This document shows positions 1-10,186 of a DNA stretch of 34,539 nt, piece after piece. The notes under the pieces were generated by a model. It had not been told where the DNA came from, ran no database searches, and saw only the letters and a program-made list of their open reading frames with translations. This stretch comes from Actinomycetota bacterium. Lineage in GTDB: Bacteria > Actinomycetota > UBA4738 > HRBIN12. Made by a program: the position numbers and the translations under genes. Location of the stretch: NCBI GenBank assembly GCA_040902755.1, contig JBBDWS010000053.1, forward strand, positions 1 to 34,539, in the 5' to 3' direction. The first letter of the stretch is position 1, and each line of letters begins with the position of its first letter.

Positions 1-50
1 TCGAGGATGCGGCGCGCGTCGCTCGGGTCCATGGTTGGGCGAGTCTAGCA

Positions 51-77
51 AGGGGAACTATCCCCTTGAGGGCGGTA
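51..77. repeat. Left terminal inverted repeat (27 bp) of the IS1595-family element
   Basis: Perfect reverse complement of 2707..2733. It contains an internal hairpin aagggga-acta-tcccctt. Confidence 0.85.
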
Positions 78-101
78 CAGGCACGTCCTTCATGCCTCGA
101 C

Positions 102-887
102 CTAGAGGAATTTCCCCAGCACTTCCGCGACGAGGCGTTCGACTTGCCCAACAAACGGAAGCAGATAGGGGCCGTCTTGAACGGCTATTTGTCTGGCCGC
201 ATCGAAGTCCACGCTCACGTCGGGTTTTTGCTCCGGGGGAAACGGCGAGTAGATGTTGATCGATACAGCCTTTGTGTGAGGCTCAAACGGCTCACCCGGC
301 TGGCCGCGGTGAAGGATCTGGGTTCTGGTCCCAAGGGGGCTGCGGAATTCATAGACATGCGGGCGGATCACGGTAACAACCAACTCGCGATGCTTCTCCC
401 GACCGCTCAGCCGAAACAACCTCAACAACACTTTTCCTGGATGGTCCCAACGCCTACCCGTATACGGCTGGAATGGCGAAAGGCGGCGGCATACACCCAT
501 CCGGACACCGGGCAGATGCGTGTTGCACGACTTGTTGATGAAGTGGGAGAAGTTCTTCTCACTGAGGGGGAAGTACACGCTGGTCGAGTCCTTCAACTCC
601 GGCTTGTCTCCGGCCCCGACCAACTCGGCTGGGAGATAGTCAAGCGCGCCCCGGAAGTTGGTCAGGGTGTCTCCCAGCATGAGGCTCCAACGATGCGGCA
701 GCGGGCGCATCGTCTCGACCCAAAAATCGACCGTGTGGTTCTCAATATCGATCTTCCGTCGAAAGGTTACGGGCCGCTCGGAGTCGAGATCGGCCCACAT
801 GAAAATGTCGCGTTTGAGTTCGCGGGCGTGCTTCTGAGCCCACTCAAACTTCGTAAGGGCTCCGCTAAGGTCGAGGCGGGCCACCAT
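102..887 (-). CDS. Hypothetical protein, 261 aa (IS cargo, no family recognised)
   Basis: Track ORF 102..1160 trimmed to the in-frame ATG at 887 (MVARLDLSGALTKFEW...). Third codon positions are G/C-rich. It is co-directional with the transposase and lies inside the TIRs. No convincing SD. Confidence 0.55.
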   Translation of the reverse strand: MVARLDLSGALTKFEWAQKHARELKRDIFMWADLDSERPVTFRRKIDIENHTVDFWVETMRPLPHRWSLMLGDTLTNFRGALDYLPAELVGAGDKPELKDSTSVYFPLSEKNFSHFINKSCNTHLPGVRMGVCRRLSPFQPYTGRRWDHPGKVLLRLFRLSGREKHRELVVTVIRPHVYEFRSPLGTRTQILHRGQPGEPFEPHTKAVSINIYSPFPPEQKPDVSVDFDAARQIAVQDGPYLLPFVGQVERLVAEVLGKFL

Positions 888-908
888 GTCGCGTAGAATG
901 GAGACACG

Positions 909-1076
909 ATGCCGAGTAAGAAGCAAACCGAACCCAAGCAGGAAACCGAGAAGGGCTACAAGATTCCCGTCCCCAAGAAGGACGAGTTCTTCGACGCGCT
1001 GGGGAAGGCTGCCCGAACGCCTAAGCGCCCGGAATCCGAGACAGGAAAGCGTCGAACATCCCGCGACGACCGGTGA
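909..1076 (+). CDS. Candidate small Lys/Glu-rich protein, 55 aa (MPSKKQTEPKQETEKGYKIPVPKKDEFFDALGKAARTPKRPESETGKRRTSRDDR)
   Basis: It is below the ORF-track size cutoff. ATG 909 has GGAG (900..903) 5 nt upstream, third positions are G/C-rich, and the stop is TGA at 1074..1076. It is divergent from the 261-aa gene. Its last 56 nt overlap the transposase 3' end on the opposite strand, which lowers confidence. Confidence 0.3.
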   Translation: MPSKKQTEPKQETEKGYKIPVPKKDEFFDALGKAARTPKRPESETGKRRTSRDDR

Positions 1077-1962
1077 CATCCCGGTTGTTGTAACGGAACG
1101 CGTACTCGTCCAAGTACGACTGCAAGTGCTTGGTGGATACGTTGTGGTAGACGCCACCAAGCCCGCGCTTCACGGTCGCCCAAAAACCCTCAATCGTGTT
1201 GGTGTGGACGGTCCCGCTGACATAGACGCCCTGGGCGTGGTTGACGCGTCCGTGGGTGTATCCGAGCGATTCCAGATCGCGGTAGACGTAAGACTCGTCC
1301 GAGAACACGGTGGACGCGGGAAGGATGCGCTCCTTGGCGTGAGGCATCAGATGGTGCTTCTTCGCGGACTCCGCGACCTGCACCACAACCTTCCCGGTCC
1401 CGCTGGGGCCGCGCTGCACCATCCCGATAACCGGGGTCTTGGTGACAGGGCCAGTCCCCTTGTGGGGGCGCTTCCCTTCGTGCTTCCACTTGTCCTTCCC
1501 GCCGAAGTAGGACTCGTCCACCTCGACGGTTCCGCCCACCATCAAGTCGTCTTGGGACAGCAGGGACCGGATGCGGTTGGCCATGCGCCAGGCGGTCTTG
1601 TAGGTGACGCCCAACTCCCGTTCCATCTGCTTCGCGGAGATACCGCATCGAGTGCTGGCCATGAGGTACATCGCGTAGAACCACAGCTTCAGCGAAGTGG
1701 CCGAATCCTCGAAGATCGTCCCGACCATCGGGTGTACGCGGTGGCCGCAGAACTGGCAGGAATAGGACGGGCGCGACTTCTCCCGATGGTGCTTGGTGAT
1801 CTTGCCGCATGTCGGGCAGAACGCACCATCGGGGTAGCGGAAGCGGTAGAGCCAGTCGAGGCAGGACGCATCGTCGGGGAACTCCCGCTCGAACTCCATG
1901 AGGGAGTAGCGGGATTCGGAAGCCCTCGACCGCTTCGGATTGTTCCGATCCGCCTTCGACAT
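1021..1962 (-). CDS. IS1595 family (ISXO2-like) DDE transposase with N-terminal zinc ribbon
   Basis: 313 aa. Zn-ribbon CPTCG...CQFCGH; motifs VEVDESYFGGK, FSDESYVY, HTNTIEGFWATVKRGLGGVYHNVSTKHLQSYLDEYAFRYNNR are typical of the Zn_Tnp_IS1595 and DDE_Tnp_IS1595 domains. Confidence 0.9.
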   Translation of the reverse strand: MSKADRNNPKRSRASESRYSLMEFEREFPDDASCLDWLYRFRYPDGAFCPTCGKITKHHREKSRPSYSCQFCGHRVHPMVGTIFEDSATSLKLWFYAMYLMASTRCGISAKQMERELGVTYKTAWRMANRIRSLLSQDDLMVGGTVEVDESYFGGKDKWKHEGKRPHKGTGPVTKTPVIGMVQRGPSGTGKVVVQVAESAKKHHLMPHAKERILPASTVFSDESYVYRDLESLGYTHGRVNHAQGVYVSGTVHTNTIEGFWATVKRGLGGVYHNVSTKHLQSYLDEYAFRYNNRDVTGRRGMFDAFLSRIPGA

Positions 1963-2002
1963 GCCGTATATGTACCATACGGCAGTACTGCCGTCAAGTA
2001 CC

Positions 2003-2230
2003 CTAGGCGGTTTCTAGCACCGACTCGGCGGGCAGCGTGCCGATACGCTGGCCCTTGTCGTCGAGCGCGACAACAGCCACTAGTGAAAGCCGACCACGCC
2101 TCTCGCTCACGATCTCGTCGAGAAGCACGCGCAGGCCTGCCCACGTCGTGGCCGAACCCACGTTCGACCCTCCGTGGGCCTCATAGAGCACGTAGCAAGC
2201 GGCGTCGTGAGGGAAGTCCATGTCAGTCAT
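2003..2230 (-). CDS. Hypothetical protein, 75 aa (IS cargo; downstream partner of an overlapping gene pair)
   Basis: ORF track. Its ATG overlaps the stop of the 157-aa ORF by 8 nt (2223..2230), which suggests translational coupling. No recognisable family. Confidence 0.5.
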   Translation of the reverse strand: MTDMDFPHDAACYVLYEAHGGSNVGSATTWAGLRVLLDEIVSERRGRLSLVAVVALDDKGQRIGTLPAESVLETA

Positions 2231-2696
2231 CGTACTCCCGTCTTTCTAGTATCGAGAACACGTCCTCGACCCTTGAGGGGTCTGCCAAATCTTGCGCTGG
2301 CCCCCATATACCCCAGTGCTCACGCTCGGGACCGATCCACCCGCAAGCGTGGCCATCGTCCGGAGACACTCGAAAGCGTGCAATATGGGAGAAGGGCGTT
2401 ATTTCGCCCTTCTTTTCCAGGATTGGGTTGAGAACATCGCGGGCGGTATCCCTCGCGATTCTCTCGCCGGTCCAAGCCGAGAATCCTCGGTACGTGAAGT
2501 GGTCCTCGCGCGGGAACCGATCACGCAACTCGAATTCGGCGGCGAAGTCGTCGGTCAGCGGCGGGTCGTTCCTCACGAAGCGCCAGAACACCAACTCGGC
2601 CACTGGCACCCCTACGATGAAGGGTCCCTCGCGCCACCCGCCTGTCAGTTCCCAGAGTTCGTCGGGGGTAGGGGGCGTGACCATGTGGCTGGTCAT
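2223..2696 (-). CDS. Hypothetical protein, 157 aa (IS cargo; upstream partner of an overlapping gene pair)
   Basis: ORF track (MTSHMVTPPTPDELWELTGGWREGPF...). It starts 11 nt inside the right TIR boundary region. No recognisable family. Confidence 0.55.
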   Translation of the reverse strand: MTSHMVTPPTPDELWELTGGWREGPFIVGVPVAELVFWRFVRNDPPLTDDFAAEFELRDRFPREDHFTYRGFSAWTGERIARDTARDVLNPILEKKGEITPFSHIARFRVSPDDGHACGWIGPEREHWGIWGPAQDLADPSRVEDVFSILERREYDD

Positions 2697-2706
2697 CCTA
2701 GCGACC

Positions 2707-2733
2707 TACCGCCCTCAAGGGGATAGTTCCCCT
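2707..2733. repeat. Right terminal inverted repeat (27 bp) of the IS1595-family element
   Basis: Perfect reverse complement of 51..77. The match stops at both the inner and outer neighbouring bases. Confidence 0.85.
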
Positions 2734-2784
2734 AGCAAGGGGTTTCGGGCCGACCGCCGATCGCGCGTCGCGCGCGGCAGGGAC

Positions 2785-4227
2785 TCAGCCCAAACGGTCT
2801 GCCGGCTCGGCCGGCACGTCGAGCACGAACGTCACGTCCTGTCCCACGCGGACCGACGTCGTGCCGCCTTGCGCCATCGCGACGCCGTTCGCCACGAACA
2901 AGCCGATCTTGCTGCCCGAGCCGGTCCCCGGCGCTCGCGCCAGGAACAGTCGTTCGGCGTCCTCCTGGCTCAGCGTGGTGCCCCGCCGCGAGACCTCCAG
3001 GACGAGCCGTCCGTCGCGAACGGCTCCCTCGACGCGGAGCGGGCCCTCGTTCGTCCACCACACCAGCGCTTCGATGAACGCCTCCAGGACCAGACGAAGT
3101 CGTTCGGGGTCCACGAACGCCTGGACATCCCCTCCTTCCCAGAGGATCTGCGGATGGTCCGGATCGCGCCCCAGTGACTCCGCAACCTGCCCGACGAGCC
3201 TGCCGACCTCGATCCGCTCGGGGAACAGGTCGAGCGAGCCGGCGGCTAGCCGAGCCGCGTCAACGAGCTGTCGCAGGATCGAGTTCAACCGGTCGGTGTC
3301 GTAGACGATCCCGGCCAGCATGAGTGCGCGTTGCTCCTCGGGCATCTGATCCCAGCGGTTGACGAGCGCGTGCCCGAATCCCTTCATCGCGGTAAGCGGC
3401 GAGCGGATGTCGTGGGCCGCCGCCGCGATCACTGTCTCGAGGACGGCACGGCGTCCCTCGCGCTGCTGGCGCGTCCACTCGAACAGGCAGACGGAGGCCG
3501 CCGCCGCGAGGTTGAGCGACTCGGCGCGGCCGACGATCGGAACGCGGACCGTCGCATCGGCGAGCCTGGACACCTCTCGCGGGAGTCCCCACGCCTCGTT
3601 CCCGAACACGAAGACCGCCGGGTCGGCAAGGTCCAGCTCGAACAGGTCCGCGTCCCCCGAAGCGTCCATGGCGAAGATGCGCCGGCCCCCGTCGCGCAGC
3701 TGTGCGATCGCATCCGGGGTTTCGACGTCCCGCACGATCGGAAGGTGGAACAGCGAGCCGGCGGACGCGCGGACCGCCTTCGGGTTGTACACGTCGACGG
3801 AATCGGAGCTGAAGACGACGCCGTCGGCACCCGCGGCGTCGGCCGAGCGAAGGACCGTTCCGGCATTGCCCGGGTCGCGGACCGAGCTCAACAGGGCCAC
3901 GCATCTCGAGGAGGACACGACGGATCCGAGGCCGACGTCCACGAACGGGGAGACTCCGACCAGCCCCTGTGGCGTCACGGTCGATGTCAGCTTGCCCATC
4001 ACCTCGTCGCTCACGTGGACGAGCTCCGCTCCGGCCGAACGTGCGGCATCGACGAGCGGGTGTCCGGGATCGGTGTGGTAGAGGCTGGTCAGGCCATCGG
4101 GGTGGGTGAGGGCTTCGCCGACGGCCTGCGCGCCCTCGACGAGGAACCGGCGCTCGCGTTCCCGGAGCGCTCGCTTCTTCAGGCGCAGGGCGGAAGCGAC
4201 CTTCTCGTTGCGTGTCGACGTGATCAC
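2785..4227 (-). CDS. TrmH/SpoU-family RNA 2'-O-methyltransferase fused to a C-terminal histidine-kinase-like DHp/CA module
   Basis: Track ORF 2785..4302 trimmed to GTG 4227, which has GGAGG 5 nt upstream. N-terminal SpoU motifs: DPGNAGTVLRSA, FVFGNEAWGLP, VPIVGRAESLNLAAAASVCLFEW. C-terminal H-box AAAAHDIRSPLTAMKGF and a GTGSGSKIGL G2-like box. It sits where tsnR/TrmH lies after rplT in actinobacteria. Confidence 0.85.
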   Translation of the reverse strand: MITSTRNEKVASALRLKKRALRERERRFLVEGAQAVGEALTHPDGLTSLYHTDPGHPLVDAARSAGAELVHVSDEVMGKLTSTVTPQGLVGVSPFVDVGLGSVVSSSRCVALLSSVRDPGNAGTVLRSADAAGADGVVFSSDSVDVYNPKAVRASAGSLFHLPIVRDVETPDAIAQLRDGGRRIFAMDASGDADLFELDLADPAVFVFGNEAWGLPREVSRLADATVRVPIVGRAESLNLAAAASVCLFEWTRQQREGRRAVLETVIAAAAHDIRSPLTAMKGFGHALVNRWDQMPEEQRALMLAGIVYDTDRLNSILRQLVDAARLAAGSLDLFPERIEVGRLVGQVAESLGRDPDHPQILWEGGDVQAFVDPERLRLVLEAFIEALVWWTNEGPLRVEGAVRDGRLVLEVSRRGTTLSQEDAERLFLARAPGTGSGSKIGLFVANGVAMAQGGTTSVRVGQDVTFVLDVPAEPADRLG

Positions 4228-4295
4228 ACGTGCCTCCGGGGGCGTCGCCCCGGAGTGGAATCCTAGTGCCCGCGAGGTCGCCGCCTCGCAGGCAG

Positions 4296-4377
4296 GCCTC
4301 AAGCAGCGAAGCGGTAGGCCTTCGTGGGAAGCCTCAAGCAGCGAAGCGGTAGGCCTTCGTGGGAAGCCTCAAGCAGC
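4296..4377 (-). repeat. 35-bp tandem direct repeat (2 perfect units plus a 12-nt partial unit that is the rplT 3' end including its stop codon)
   Basis: gcctcaagcagcgaagcggtaggccttcgtgggaa occurs at 4296..4330 and identically at 4331..4365. gcctcaagcagc recurs at 4366..4377, covering the rplT codons GCT GCT TGA. Confidence 0.95.
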
Positions 4378-6591: not shown

Positions 6592-7065
6592 TCAGCGTTC
6601 CTTCGGCAGCTGGTCGAGCACCGACGCCGTCTCCAGCGCGGCCATCGCCGCATCCCAGCCCTTGTTCCCGTGCTTGCCTCCCGCTCGGTCGATCGCCTGC
6701 TCGAGCGTGTCGGTCGTGAGGACCCCGAAGATCACCGGCACGCCGGTGTCCTCGGCTGCCGTTCGGATCCCGAGTGCCGCCTGGCCGGCCACGTGGTCGA
6801 AGTGCGGTGTCTCGCCTCGCACGACCGCCCCGAGACAGATGACGGCGTCGAAGCCACCCGAGGCAGCCAGCCGCCGCGACACGAGCGGAAGCTCGAACGC
6901 ACCCGGCACCCACGCGACGAGGAGGTCGTCCTCGTCGATCCCGTGCGCCCGAAGGCACTCGACGGCGCCCTCCAGGAGCTTGCCCGTCACGAGCTCGTTG
7001 AACCGCGCCACCACGATCGCGAGGCGGCGGCCGCGGGCCAGGAAGTCTCCCCGCACGTCCCTCAT
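6592..7065 (-). CDS. ribH: 6,7-dimethyl-8-ribityllumazine synthase
   Basis: 157 aa, ...IVVARFNELVTGKLLEGA...WVPGAFELP...; ATGA overlap with ribBA. Confidence 0.95.
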   Translation of the reverse strand: MRDVRGDFLARGRRLAIVVARFNELVTGKLLEGAVECLRAHGIDEDDLLVAWVPGAFELPLVSRRLAASGGFDAVICLGAVVRGETPHFDHVAGQAALGIRTAAEDTGVPVIFGVLTTDTLEQAIDRAGGKHGNKGWDAAMAALETASVLDQLPKER

Positions 7066-8321
7066 CGGACCTCCTCGTCGAGCGTATCGAGCCCGCCGAG
7101 CAGGTGGCCGAGCTTCTCTCGCTTCGTCCGCAGGTACTCGATGTTGCGGGCGTTCGGCCGGACCTCGAGCGGCTCGCGTTCCACGATCGACAGACCGTAG
7201 CCCTCGAGGCCGGCCCGCTTGGCCGGGTTGTTCGTCAGCAGGCGCATCGACCGCACGCCGAGGTCGACGAGGATCTGCGCCCCGATGCCGTAGTCTCGTG
7301 GATCGGCCGCGAAGCCGAGCTCGACGTTCGCCTCGACCGTGTCTCGCCCCCGCTCCTGCAGCTGGTAGGCGCGGAGCTTGTGCGTGAGGCCGATCGCGCG
7401 GCCCTCGTGCCCTCGGATGTACAGGACGACGCCGCGACCTTCCGCCCCGACCCGCTCGATCGCCGCCTCGAGCTGATCGCCGCAGTCGCAGCGCAACGAG
7501 CCGAACACGTCACCCGTCAGGCACTCGGAGTGCACGCGGACCAAGATCCGCTCGCCGTCGCCGACGTCGCCCAGGACGAAGGCAACGTGCACGTTCCCGT
7601 CGACGAGGCTCTCGTAGGTGAGGGCCGTGAACTCGCCGTGCTCCGTGGGGATGGATGCCTCGGCCGTGCGCTTCACGAGATGCTCGCGCCGGCGCCGGTA
7701 CTCGATAAGGTCCGCGATCGAGATCATCTTCAGACCGTGCGCTCGGGCGACCCGGACGAGCTCGGGCATCCGGGCCATCGTCCCGTCGGGGTGCAGGACC
7801 TCGCACAGCACGCCGGCCGGGTACCGGCCGGCCAGGCGGGCGAGGTCCACCGTGGCCTCGGTGTGACCCGCTCGCTTCAGCACGCCTCCCTCCTGCGCCA
7901 TCAGCGGGAACACGTGCCCGGGCATCCGGATGTCCTCGGCGCGAAGCTCCGGGTCGGTGATCGCCAGAACGGTCGCCGCGCGGTCGAACGCGCTCGTCCC
8001 GGTCGTCGTACGCCCCTGGATGTCTATCGAGACCGCGAAGGCGGTCCCGTGGCTCTCGTTGTTCTTCGAGACCATCAAAGGGATCCGAAGCTCGTCGAGG
8101 CGCTGCGGGGTCACCGGCATGCAGACGATCCCTCGACCGTGGGTGACCATGAAGTTGAGCGCCTCCGGCGTCGCCCGGTCCGCGGCCAGGACGAAGTCGC
8201 CTTCGTTCTCCCGGTCGGCGTCGTCGACGACGATCACCACCCGCCCCTCTCGGACGTCCTCGAGCGCCTCTTCGATCGTCGCGAACGCGTTCCGATCGAT
8301 CTCGTCCTGCGTGTGGCTCAT
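7062..8321 (-). CDS. ribBA: Bifunctional 3,4-dihydroxy-2-butanone-4-phosphate synthase / GTP cyclohydrolase II
   Basis: Track ORF 7062..8837 trimmed to ATG 8321 (ATGA overlap with the ribE stop). Motifs DRENEGDFV, HTEATVDLARLAG, VRVHSECLTGDVFGSLRCDCGDQL. Confidence 0.95.
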   Translation of the reverse strand: MSHTQDEIDRNAFATIEEALEDVREGRVVIVVDDADRENEGDFVLAADRATPEALNFMVTHGRGIVCMPVTPQRLDELRIPLMVSKNNESHGTAFAVSIDIQGRTTTGTSAFDRAATVLAITDPELRAEDIRMPGHVFPLMAQEGGVLKRAGHTEATVDLARLAGRYPAGVLCEVLHPDGTMARMPELVRVARAHGLKMISIADLIEYRRRREHLVKRTAEASIPTEHGEFTALTYESLVDGNVHVAFVLGDVGDGERILVRVHSECLTGDVFGSLRCDCGDQLEAAIERVGAEGRGVVLYIRGHEGRAIGLTHKLRAYQLQERGRDTVEANVELGFAADPRDYGIGAQILVDLGVRSMRLLTNNPAKRAGLEGYGLSIVEREPLEVRPNARNIEYLRTKREKLGHLLGGLDTLDEEVR

Positions 8322-8905
8322 GCGTCTCTCCCCTCGAGCAACGCTTCCACGTACTTCGCGATCACGTCCACCTCCAGGTTCACGGGGTCCTTCAGTTGGG
8401 CGGACCCGAGGGTCGTCGCCGCCAGCGTGTGCGGGATCAGGGCGACCGCGAACGTGTCGCCGTCGAGCGCGGCCACCGTCAGGCTCACGCCGTCGACGCA
8501 GACGGAGCCCTTCTCGACGAGGTAGCGGCGAAGGTCCTTCGGCGCGCGGATCGTGACCCACGCAGCGCCGTCCTTCTCCGGGGCGACCTCCACGACCTCG
8601 CCCACACCGTCCACGTGACCTTGCACGAGGTGCCCGCCGAGGCGGCTGGCCAACGTGAGCGGTCGCTCGAGGTTCACCGGGTCGCCCTGGGAGAGGCGCG
8701 CGAAGCTCGTCCTGCGAAGGGTCTCCTCGGACACGTCGAACGCGAGGTGGGCGTCCGATCGCTCGACGACCGTGAGGCACACACCGTTCACCGAGACAGA
8801 GGCACCGACCTCCGCGTCGGAGGTCACGGTTCGACATCCCACAGCGAGCCGGGATCCGCCGACCTCGCGCACGACCCCTCGCTCCTCAACGATCCCGGTG
8901 AACAT
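8318..8905 (-). CDS. ribE: Riboflavin synthase (alpha chain)
   Basis: 195 aa, MFTGIVEERG...VNGVCLTVV... with the duplicated lumazine-binding repeat. Confidence 0.93.
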   Translation of the reverse strand: MFTGIVEERGVVREVGGSRLAVGCRTVTSDAEVGASVSVNGVCLTVVERSDAHLAFDVSEETLRRTSFARLSQGDPVNLERPLTLASRLGGHLVQGHVDGVGEVVEVAPEKDGAAWVTIRAPKDLRRYLVEKGSVCVDGVSLTVAALDGDTFAVALIPHTLAATTLGSAQLKDPVNLEVDVIAKYVEALLEGRDA

Positions 8906-9986
8906 CGGCCTCCACCCTCAGATCCTCTCCCACGCGGTCGAACGAGCGCACCCGCAGGCCCACGGCGTTCGCGATCGGCGCGAACCCGCGCCCTCCGAGG
9001 ACGGTCGGCGCATCGGTGCCTCCGACCAGCTTCGGCGCGAGATAGACGACGACCTTGTCGACGAGGCCGTCCTCGATCGCGGCCCAGGCCAGCGTAGGCC
9101 CGCCCTCGAGCAGCACCGCCTGGACGTCCCGCTTCCCAAGGTCCGCAACGAGCTCGCCGAGCGGCACGCGCTCGCTCTCGGGCTCGTAGACGACGACCTC
9201 GGCACCGGCGGCCCTCCACTCCTCGCGGCGCTCCGAAGATGCGAGATCGGTGGTCGCGACGAGCGTCGGCGCGTCCTCGTCGAACAGATCACCGGTCGCC
9301 GGGACGCGCCCCCGCGCGTCGACCAGGATCCGGAGCGGCGCGCGTCCCCGATATCCGGGCAGTCGGACCGTCAGTGCGGGATCGTCGGCGAGCGCCGTCC
9401 CGGCTCCGACCACGATCGCGTCGGAGGACGAGCGCAGACGATGCACGTCGGCCCTCGCCGCCTCGCCCGTGATCCATCGCGACGAGCCGTCGCGGGCGGC
9501 GACCTTGCCGTCGAGCGAGGCGGCCATCTTCCACGTGACGAATGGCAGCCCCGTCCGCACGTGCTTCAAGAAAGCCTCGTTCTGGCGAGCCGCCTCGTCG
9601 CCGAGCGTGCCGAACTCAACCTCGATCCCGTGTGACTGAAGCTTCGCGAACCCACGGCCGTCGACGATGGGGTTCGGGTCGCGCATCGCGGAGACGACGC
9701 GGCCGATCCCCGCGGAAACGATCGCGTCGGTGCACGGGCCGGTGTGGCCGAAGTGGTCGCACGGCTCCAACGAGGTGAACAGGACCGCTCCCCGAGCGCG
9801 CTCGCCGGCCGCCTCGAGGGCCCGGATCTCCGCGTGCGGCGTCCCGGGCCCCTCGTGCCAGCCCTCGCCGGCGACACGGCCATCGGAGGTAACGACGACG
9901 GCGCCGACCATGGGGTTCGGGGACACCAGTCCCCGCCCACGCTCTGCGAGCGAGATCGCCCGCTCGATGTACACCTCGTCGGACAC
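8886..9986 (-). CDS. ribD: Bifunctional diaminohydroxyphosphoribosylaminopyrimidine deaminase / 5-amino-6-(5-phosphoribosylamino)uracil reductase
   Basis: Track ORF 8886..10145 trimmed to GTG 9986 (VSDEVYIERAISLAERG...). Motifs HAEIRAL and LEPCDHFGHTGPC, plus the reductase domain. Confidence 0.92.
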   Translation of the reverse strand: MSDEVYIERAISLAERGRGLVSPNPMVGAVVVTSDGRVAGEGWHEGPGTPHAEIRALEAAGERARGAVLFTSLEPCDHFGHTGPCTDAIVSAGIGRVVSAMRDPNPIVDGRGFAKLQSHGIEVEFGTLGDEAARQNEAFLKHVRTGLPFVTWKMAASLDGKVAARDGSSRWITGEAARADVHRLRSSSDAIVVGAGTALADDPALTVRLPGYRGRAPLRILVDARGRVPATGDLFDEDAPTLVATTDLASSERREEWRAAGAEVVVYEPESERVPLGELVADLGKRDVQAVLLEGGPTLAWAAIEDGLVDKVVVYLAPKLVGGTDAPTVLGGRGFAPIANAVGLRVRSFDRVGEDLRVEADVHRDR

Positions 9987-10051
9987 GTTGGCACCCCGAT
10001 CACGGGGCGCAGGTGGGGAGGGCAGGAGGCGGCAGCAAGCCGCTGCCGGCA

Positions 10052-10186
10052 CCGCCCGTCCTCTCCCATCCCGACTCTCACGGTCGGTCCCGGAATCGCG
10101 CCGGGTCCACCCTCGACCGGCTGCCGAGGGGTTGCGGACTGTCACCGCCGGTGGGGACTTGCACCCCGCCCCGAAGACGAGCTTCG
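10052..10186 (-). promoter_or_regulatory. FMN riboswitch (RFN element) in the ribD leader
   Basis: The minus strand reads CGUCUUCGGGGCGGGGUGCAAGUCCCCACCGGCGGUGACAGUCCGCAACC...GGACCCGGCGCGAUUCCGGGACCGACCGUGAGAGUCGGGAUGGGAGAGGACG. This matches the conserved RFN core. P1 is formed by 10173..10179 and 10057..10063. Confidence 0.9.

Follow-up and report, generated by a model that had tools for sequence, protein, structure and literature searches.

The left end of contig JBBDWS010000053.1 (assembly GCA_040902755.1, Actinomycetota bacterium), which was analysed over its whole length of 34,539 nt and is referred to below as the window, contains at positions 53..2731 what is very probably a single mobile unit, a passenger-carrying ('transporter') insertion sequence (IS) of the IS1595 family, with a proposed modular origin in which a second, upstream cassette of genes came to be carried by an IS of the plan usual for its clade. 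An earlier reading of the window, made without database searches (hereafter the sequence-only reading), had proposed an IS1595-family element that carries non-transposase genes and moved as a unit, and the terminal inverted repeats (TIRs), the single target-site duplication and the family matches of the transposase are in agreement with that proposal. The same reading listed four co-directional open reading frames (ORFs) on the minus strand; all four are present, but a fifth gene, on the plus strand at 909-1076, had been overlooked. The features of the element are as follows (IRL and IRR, left and right inverted repeats):

45..52, no strand: left target-site duplication CTAGCAAG, identical to 2732-2739
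53..77, plus strand: TIR on the side distal to the transposase (IRR), GGGAACTATCCCCTTGAGGGCGGTA, with 25/25 positions matching the second arm
102..887, minus strand: ORF A, 261 amino acids (aa), passenger protein, with homologues in the same slot of 22/66 relatives
909..1076, plus strand: small basic ORF, 55 aa, the peptide being present in 64/66 relatives
1021..1962, minus strand: IS1595-family DDE transposase gene, 313 aa, apparently intact (PF12762, PF12760, NF033547)
1986..2002, minus strand: inner left TIR remnant, GGTA followed by CTTGACGGCAGTA, with a layout matching the left ends of compact relatives
2003..2230, minus strand: ORF C, 75 aa, second gene of the D-C pair, homologues with 67-76% identity
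2223..2696, minus strand: ORF D, 157 aa (153 aa if the start is at 2684), first gene of the D-C pair, overlapping C by 8 nt (ATGACTGA)
2707..2731, minus strand: TIR at the transposase-upstream end (outer IRL), 25/25 match to 53-77
2732..2739, no strand: right target-site duplication CTAGCAAG, by direct reading

Direct reading indicates that positions 51-77 (aggggaactatccccttgagggcggta) are the exact reverse complement of 2707-2733, and a repeat finder delimited longer arms, 45-77 and 2707-2739 (33 nt, 94% match); the 25-nt core of the TIR has just two sites in the window, with an expectation of 0.00 from 100 shuffles. The 11-bp direct repeat ctagcaagggg, described earlier as overlapping both termini, is located at 45-55 and 2732-2742. 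In the inverted repeat position p pairs with 2784-p, the direct repeat has an offset of 2687, and under both pairing constraints symmetric ends are obtained with a duplication of 4, 6 or 8 bp. A duplication of 8 bp, which is the usual target duplication length in the IS1595 family (PMC8101967), yields an element of 2,679 bp (53..2731) with perfect 25-bp TIRs. For comparison, 80 genome loci were fetched with the transposase and 64 of them could be delimited as elements, making, together with a sister element from a metagenome contig (L087) and the element of the window, a set of 66; a perfect 8/8 duplication flanks 55 of the 64 and 57 of the 66. Since the ends are symmetric and 57/66 delimited relatives have perfect 8/8 duplications, the duplication is taken to be the 8-bp CTAGCAAG, which replaces the minimal agca of ambiguous length suggested by the sequence-only reading. 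As CTAGCAAG starts with CT and ends with AG, the two outermost bases of the previously reported perfect 27-bp TIRs belong to the target duplication; the 27-bp match is exact, but the functional TIR has 25 bp. The empty site predicted earlier, gggcgagtCTAGCAAGgggtttcgggcc, is the one implied by the derived 8-bp duplication, and the empty-site sequence implied for the insertion of 53..2731 reads GGGCGAGTCTAGCAAGGGGTTTCGGGCC. The TIR at 53..77 agrees with the clade consensus GGtAAtTATCCCtTgac..AnGTA, and the termini of the element read GGGAACTAT, the corresponding clade consensus being GGtAAtTATCCC.

Profile searches clearly indicate the affiliation of the product of 1021..1962, already read as an IS1595-type transposase from the sequence, with PF12762 (DDE_Tnp_IS1595, 1.8e-41, residues 142-292), PF12760 (Zn_ribbon_IS1595, 1.5e-07, residues 29-74) and NF033547 (IS1595 family transposase, 1.1e-60). 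The protein retains all residues that show at least 95% conservation among the 66 clade members, among them the zinc-ribbon cysteines (C34, C49, C52, C69 and C72), D149, D222, K265, E286 and R290; E258 is also kept, with E at that position in 57/66, and the spacing is such that K265 corresponds to E258+7 and R290 to E286+4. The full-length ORF, the kept residues and the perfect TIRs and duplication suggest that the transposase may be active, and a recent insertion fits the data, given the apparently intact transposase, the lack of mismatches in the TIRs and in the duplication, and the foreign G+C content. We take the ISNwi1 group of the family, by an assumed definition, to be characterised by ends of the form ggnnatTAT, the DDEK and ER4 signatures and a passenger-carrying form of 1.75-4.75 kb; the window element presumably belongs to this pattern (ends GGGAACTAT; D149, D222, E258, K265, E286-R290), as judged against the pattern itself.

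Like other members of the IS1595 family, the window element has the zinc ribbon together with a DDE_Tnp_IS1595 domain, TIRs starting with GG and an 8-bp duplication, but it is 2.7 kb long and contains five ORFs in all, whereas the canonical member has a single transposase gene (PMC8101967); the N-terminal zinc ribbon is a trait of the family absent just from the IS1016 group (PMC8101967). It follows from the additional ORFs that the element is a passenger-carrying variant rather than something outside the IS1595 family. According to the passage of PMC3129680 that cites Siguier et al. 2009, it was for IS1595 that transporter ISs, whose passenger genes have no relation to transposition, were described first, and the window element resembles them in that A, C and D are situated inside 53..2731 within one duplication. 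These three ORFs can be regarded as passengers, because they lie inside the TIRs with a single duplication, and homologues of A and of D-C are found elsewhere without a transposase gene.

The relatives place this cargo in a different light. The sequence-only reading had counted roughly 1.7 kb as cargo on the premise that a basic IS1595 element measures about 1 kb and has a single ORF; this premise is true of the family in general, but all 95 delimited relatives (the 66 elements and a second set of 29 delimited in viral contigs) carry passenger DNA. The 66 elements are 1,895-4,786 bp long; in all of them the distal TIR is separated from the transposase stop codon by at least 945 bp, and the proximal TIR is normally just 35-110 bp away from the start codon; the 29 elements of viral contigs are 1,420-4,639 bp long, some of them with a mirror layout, where the passenger is upstream. 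A bare 1-kb IS was encountered in 0/95, the overall range being 1.4-4.8 kb. Thus, extra DNA is the rule in this clade, and just the upstream D-C is unusual; an IS1595 clade that spans phyla (Actinomycetota, Chloroflexota, Acidobacteriota and others) seems never to be a bare IS. The sister element L087 (238..3064), found with the TIR, shares the TIR of the window element; its transposase is 72% identical, and its duplication, ATGATCGT, has 8 bp. Two further layouts were observed among the relatives. In the 4.8-kb element L026 (119-4904), apparently a nested or duplicated insertion, both the transposase gene and the small ORF are present twice, and there is also a 442-aa ORF which, on visual inspection, resembles a transposase of the integrase type. 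More distant relatives in viral contigs (L099, L101, L103, L111 and L126) show the mirror layout, in which the transposase gene is preceded by 494-747 bp and followed by only 95-189 bp.

The D and C genes of the upstream cargo are rare: each has two homologue clusters among 5.8 billion proteins, C homologues are always located directly downstream of a D homologue, and D and C are adjacent in the same order in five loci, namely the window and four homologous loci. Two small genes with an 8-nt, ATGA-type overlap, kept together in five loci and carried on mobile DNA, could be a toxin-antitoxin pair that stabilises the element or the host replicon. This explanation is possible, though doubtful: no resemblance to a toxin or antitoxin family was revealed in Pfam, NCBIfam, PADLOC or PHROGs, D had no counterpart among the PDB sequences, a DNA-binding domain was not detected, and four homologous loci (five with the window) among 5.8 billion proteins are few.

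The small basic ORF converges on the transposase gene, its final 56 nt overlapping the transposase 3' end in antisense, and a GGAGA sequence precedes its ATG by 4 nt. A tblastn search found the ORF at the same position in many relatives, and an iterated profile revealed the peptide in 64/66 delimited elements, always on the strand opposite to the transposase gene. The core of the peptide is roughly ..P.t+.eF..LL+KA..P.., followed by a basic proline-rich tail. Most elements encode the peptide in a separate ORF of about 40-100 codons; where a trypsin-like passenger is present, the peptide usually forms the C-terminal tail of that protein, as in L045 (933-1976, minus strand), L009 (1538-2638, minus strand) and most of 15 further trypsin-like passengers, so the module can be either free-standing or fused. 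At conserved residues of the peptide, codon positions 1 and 2 are constrained and position 3 approaches the maximum entropy; the mean entropies at positions 1, 2 and 3 are 1.45, 1.31 and 1.80 bits (for example, 0.88/0.76/1.94 bits for the P and 1.44/0.00/1.82 bits for the L), a pattern that is the signature of protein-level selection, with the caveat that the alignment was built on protein sequence. The stretch that overlaps the transposase gene does not include the conserved core, and therefore the coding constraint on the transposase does not explain the conservation.

The slot downstream of the transposase gene is taken by ORF A, which starts with the ATG at 887 and not at 1160, as had been read earlier; the longer ORF up to 1160 overlaps the transposase gene. 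A word-indexed search of the 5.8 billion proteins found only two homologues (63% and 58% identity), and an exhaustive profile search yielded 3,278 clusters at E<=1e-3 and 303 at E<=1e-10. An iterated profile placed A-like genes, in either orientation, in the passenger slot of 22/66 elements, and ORF A is one of the common occupants of the downstream passenger slot of the clade. The family is marked by the motifs KLxRAxEH, GDxxxNxRxALD(H), FP, QPY and DKH, and the near-invariant residues of a 60-member alignment include K13, H20, G72, D73, N77, D83, P107, Q140, P141, Y142, D164, K165 and H166; R79 is invariant among 18 aligned sequences. The protein of the window keeps all the listed conserved residues but D164, where it has E. 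The stretch RxALD(H), with the invariant R79, resembles the Rx4H motif of HEPN proteins; the fourth residue after R79 is H in most of the 18 sequences, whereas the protein of the window has Y there and the remaining sequences have Q, N or I, and HEPN models of Pfam matched neither ORF A nor the members of its family. Searches with 60 family members produced nothing above noise in Pfam, NCBIfam and PADLOC, apart from one marginal match to DrmC (0.0085).

A-like genes are also encountered without a transposase gene: beside an XRE-type helix-turn-helix (HTH) gene in locus L001, on a Streptomyces plasmid and, as one of a reverse-oriented pair in the tail-gene block near the integrase gene, in Gordonia phages Samba and ZiggyZoo. 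Close homologues of A were not found in the viral contigs. In phage Samba (L088, MN096365.1, 3416-4768), genes 32 and 33 are opposed to the surrounding tail genes and lie a few kb from a serine integrase gene, in a moron-like arrangement; gene 32 is A-like, with 29% identity over 62% of the query. Reverse-oriented insertions in temperate actinophages are often expressed from the prophage. In a contig of 1.5 kb (L002, 5-1269), a homologue of the small ORF adjoins a frameshifted A homologue whose neighbour is not a transposase gene, which means that the small ORF and A can co-occur without a visible transposase gene.

Perhaps ORF A and the small ORF are not cargo, and instead represent accessory or regulatory proteins of transposition in this clade. 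The small peptide is found in 64/66 whatever the passenger and overlaps the transposase 3' end, and all clade elements have DNA beyond the transposase gene, as could be expected of such proteins; A-like genes, however, are present in only 22/66 and in either orientation, the slot being filled elsewhere with unrelated proteins, and they also occur with no transposase gene nearby in the phages, the plasmid, L001 and L002. As an account of both ORFs together this is rather unlikely, somewhat more so than a toxin-antitoxin role of D-C. For the small ORF taken separately, the accessory role is the preferred guess, in the sense that its small basic product may regulate either the transposase gene or the passenger slot next to it.

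The modular structure of the element is visible between ORF C and the transposase gene. D-C fills 769 bp, from the outer TIR to the start of the transposase gene, and this distance is just 35-110 bp in nearly all relatives. The inner remnant adjoins the stop codon of ORF C (2003-2005) and lies at the distance from the transposase ATG that is typical of the left end in compact relatives (L013, L015 and L009), but it is devoid of the 8-nt core nnTATCCC of the TIR, TATCCC being the most conserved part of the clade TIR. Elements L087 and L007 contain the same crippled inner end, but their upstream cargo is different, L087 having an NYN gene there and L007 a stretch of 369 bp. In locus L005, a 1,151-bp cassette (103..1253) with D-C homologues (57-75% identity), about 400 bp of other sequence and no transposase gene is bounded by GGGAACTATCCCCTCGACGGCGGTA and its near-perfect inverted copy (GGGAACTATCCCC-type inverted repeats). 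This is reminiscent of the mobile insertion cassettes (MICs), which are TIR-bounded and have no transposase gene (PMC3129680); the L005 cassette likewise carries D-C between TIRs of the same type without a transposase gene, and would provide a source for the upstream cargo. The window element differs from MICs in having its own transposase gene and in the loss of the inner end of the cassette.

The right-hand part of the element (transposase gene, small ORF and A) corresponds to the standard body plan of the clade, whose downstream slot always contains a passenger, and D-C represents a second, upstream slot, for which the following scenario can be suggested. A transposase-less cassette with the same TIRs may have come to adjoin the IS, and the two abutting inner ends may then have been lost or disabled, leaving the outer TIRs as the sole usable pair. 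Along the transposase strand, the order is outer IRL, D-C, crippled inner IRL, transposase gene, convergent small ORF, A and IRR, where the crippled inner IRL retains a TTGAC-containing sequence just upstream of the transposase gene. The element's own DDE transposase would recognise the two 25-bp TIRs and would have inserted the whole unit of 2,679 bp in the spacer that follows the SpoU/TrmH gene, with duplication of the 8 bp CTAGCAAG. Neither the clade-wide convergent small ORF nor the two-slot layout with a crippled inner TIR is known from earlier descriptions.

The same inner remnant, and the existence of D-C as a separate TIR-bounded cassette in L005, would also be compatible with two independent neighbours, a D-C cassette and an ordinary IS that landed side by side and still move separately. 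The remnant lacks the TATCCC core, however, and D-C has no adjacent inverted partner there; the sole matching 8-bp duplication flanks the whole 2,679 bp, and L087 and L007 share the crippled inner end with a single outer duplication, which makes separate movement improbable.

The composition of the element is foreign to its host: its G+C content is 60.8% compared with 69.8% in the remaining window, and none of 292 host windows of element length is below 67.3%, so the A/T-richer interior noted earlier falls outside the host range. That the 27-bp repeats belong to a host-wide family of the repetitive extragenic palindromic (REP) type around ordinary host genes can practically be dismissed, since there are no more copies in the 34.5 kb, TIRs of the same type and 8-bp duplications flank homologous transposase genes in Actinomycetota, Chloroflexota, Acidobacteriota and other phyla, and the interior G+C is beyond the host range. 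The sequence-only reading had named a host REP family as one way in which it could be wrong, and the occurrence of this TIR type around homologous transposase genes in many phyla speaks otherwise; the other way, cargo genes present at this locus without the element, was not found, though no empty site was retrieved. The REP-family reading and a reading of the cargo as host DNA were both rejected, given the tie of the TIR to the transposase across phyla and the foreign G+C.

Several results weigh against the interpretation of 53..2731 as a mobile passenger-carrying unit, or limit what can be concluded about its cargo. The mobility of 53..2731 is proposed from its structure. A search for the empty site by exact matching of the rplT product gave only a 1,083-bp contig and no such site, and scans of genomes and metagenomes with the transposase and the TIR recovered no second copy of the exact element; the nearest relatives of the transposase are only 72% (L087) and 63% identical. 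A comparison of the whole element with plasmids by DNA similarity returned only short stretches of the transposase gene with about 70-79% identity. The strict scan found no sigma-70 promoter; it is only a suggestion that TTGAC in the TIR and TAGAAT before the small ORF may serve as promoter elements. The flanks of the L005 cassette consist of 7 bp with one mismatch (CTGAAAA / CTGAAGA) in a short contig, and a TIR is not found near D-C in L003, L004 and L006; D relatives were not found in the viral contigs. A, the small ORF, D and C have no match in Pfam, NCBIfam, PADLOC or PHROGs, nor do A (profile search) and D, the only one of the D-C pair compared, among the PDB sequences. The structures predicted for A and D were too poor to use, with pLDDT (predicted local distance difference test) values of 38.6 for A, from a 3-sequence alignment, and 34.3 for D.

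The contents of the passenger slot in the relatives can offer a lead as to function. Besides the A family (22 elements), the slot contains a trypsin-like peptidase in 17 elements (PF13365, 1.3e-05), DUF3800 proteins in 5, Clp-protease-like, proteasome-like and DUF1828 proteins, a DUF433/HTH protein and an 831-aa N6-methylase protein. Comparison with PADLOC models revealed a full-length match of the upstream-slot NYN protein of L087 to HEC-09 (4.5e-38), and matches of the trypsin-like passenger to PDC-S45 (2.7e-09) and of the DUF1828 passenger to PDC-M24B (2e-10). HEC-09 is a published defence candidate, and it gave no protection against any phage in the published assay (bioRxiv 10.1101/2024.01.29.577857); the PDC models are candidates only, and both points count against a defensive reading. 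These candidates are matched by passengers of sister elements, whereas A, C, D and the small ORF of the window match none of them. A role in conflict or defence is plausible for the slot contents of the clade, judging by these similarities, which say nothing on A or D-C themselves; the A-like gene of the reverse-oriented pair in Gordonia phages Samba and ZiggyZoo is counted as a further lead in the same direction, and the best guess for A and D-C is that they are conflict-type genes (toxin or anti-phage effectors). As a tentative and rather doubtful generalisation, the clade might be a dedicated shuttle of conflict genes, with a slot headed by the conserved small basic protein and refilled by cassette exchange, where the A family and D-C would be unrecognised defence or toxin modules and the small protein a new IS-encoded regulator.

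Taken separately, the window element is one more passenger-carrying IS in a metagenomic actinobacterial contig, and its wider value comes from the relatives. At the level of the clade, the points of interest are the obligatory passenger slot, which turns over among proteases, nucleases and other genes that overlap candidate anti-phage systems, the conserved small protein encoded in antisense, the variant with two slots and the fact that passengers overlap with defence candidates; all of these should be regarded as leads and not as results. Should the cargo be defensive, single-gene defences could spread by way of very small transposons, and the slot contents would be a cheap list of new candidates.

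The insertion is located within a cluster of core translation genes (infC, rplT and a gene for a SpoU/TrmH methylase). The stop codon of the SpoU/TrmH gene, which follows rplT, is 46 bp away from the right duplication, in accordance with the earlier placement of the element just downstream of an rplT-trmH operon. An ORF (MDPSDARRIL...) that extends beyond the start of the window has its ATG (32..30, minus strand) 12 nt downstream of the left duplication. The insertion may have displaced the upstream signals of this ORF, opening at 30-32 on the minus strand, and its position, 12 nt from the next start codon, may affect host gene expression. The minus-strand genes of the IS are co-oriented with the host genes, and thus read-through transcription from the latter could still reach the ORF beyond the element. 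The SpoU/TrmH protein (2785-4302, minus strand; PF00588, 9.1e-37), which includes a substrate-binding domain, has a C-terminal fusion to HisKA (2.1e-09) and HATPase_c (5.3e-06), so that an RNA methylase is joined to a histidine-kinase core. Farther along the window, a flavin mononucleotide (FMN) riboswitch (RF00050, 95.5 bits) was detected at 10054-10182 on the minus strand, upstream of a ribD-like gene (8886-10145) and a ribBA gene (7062-8837).

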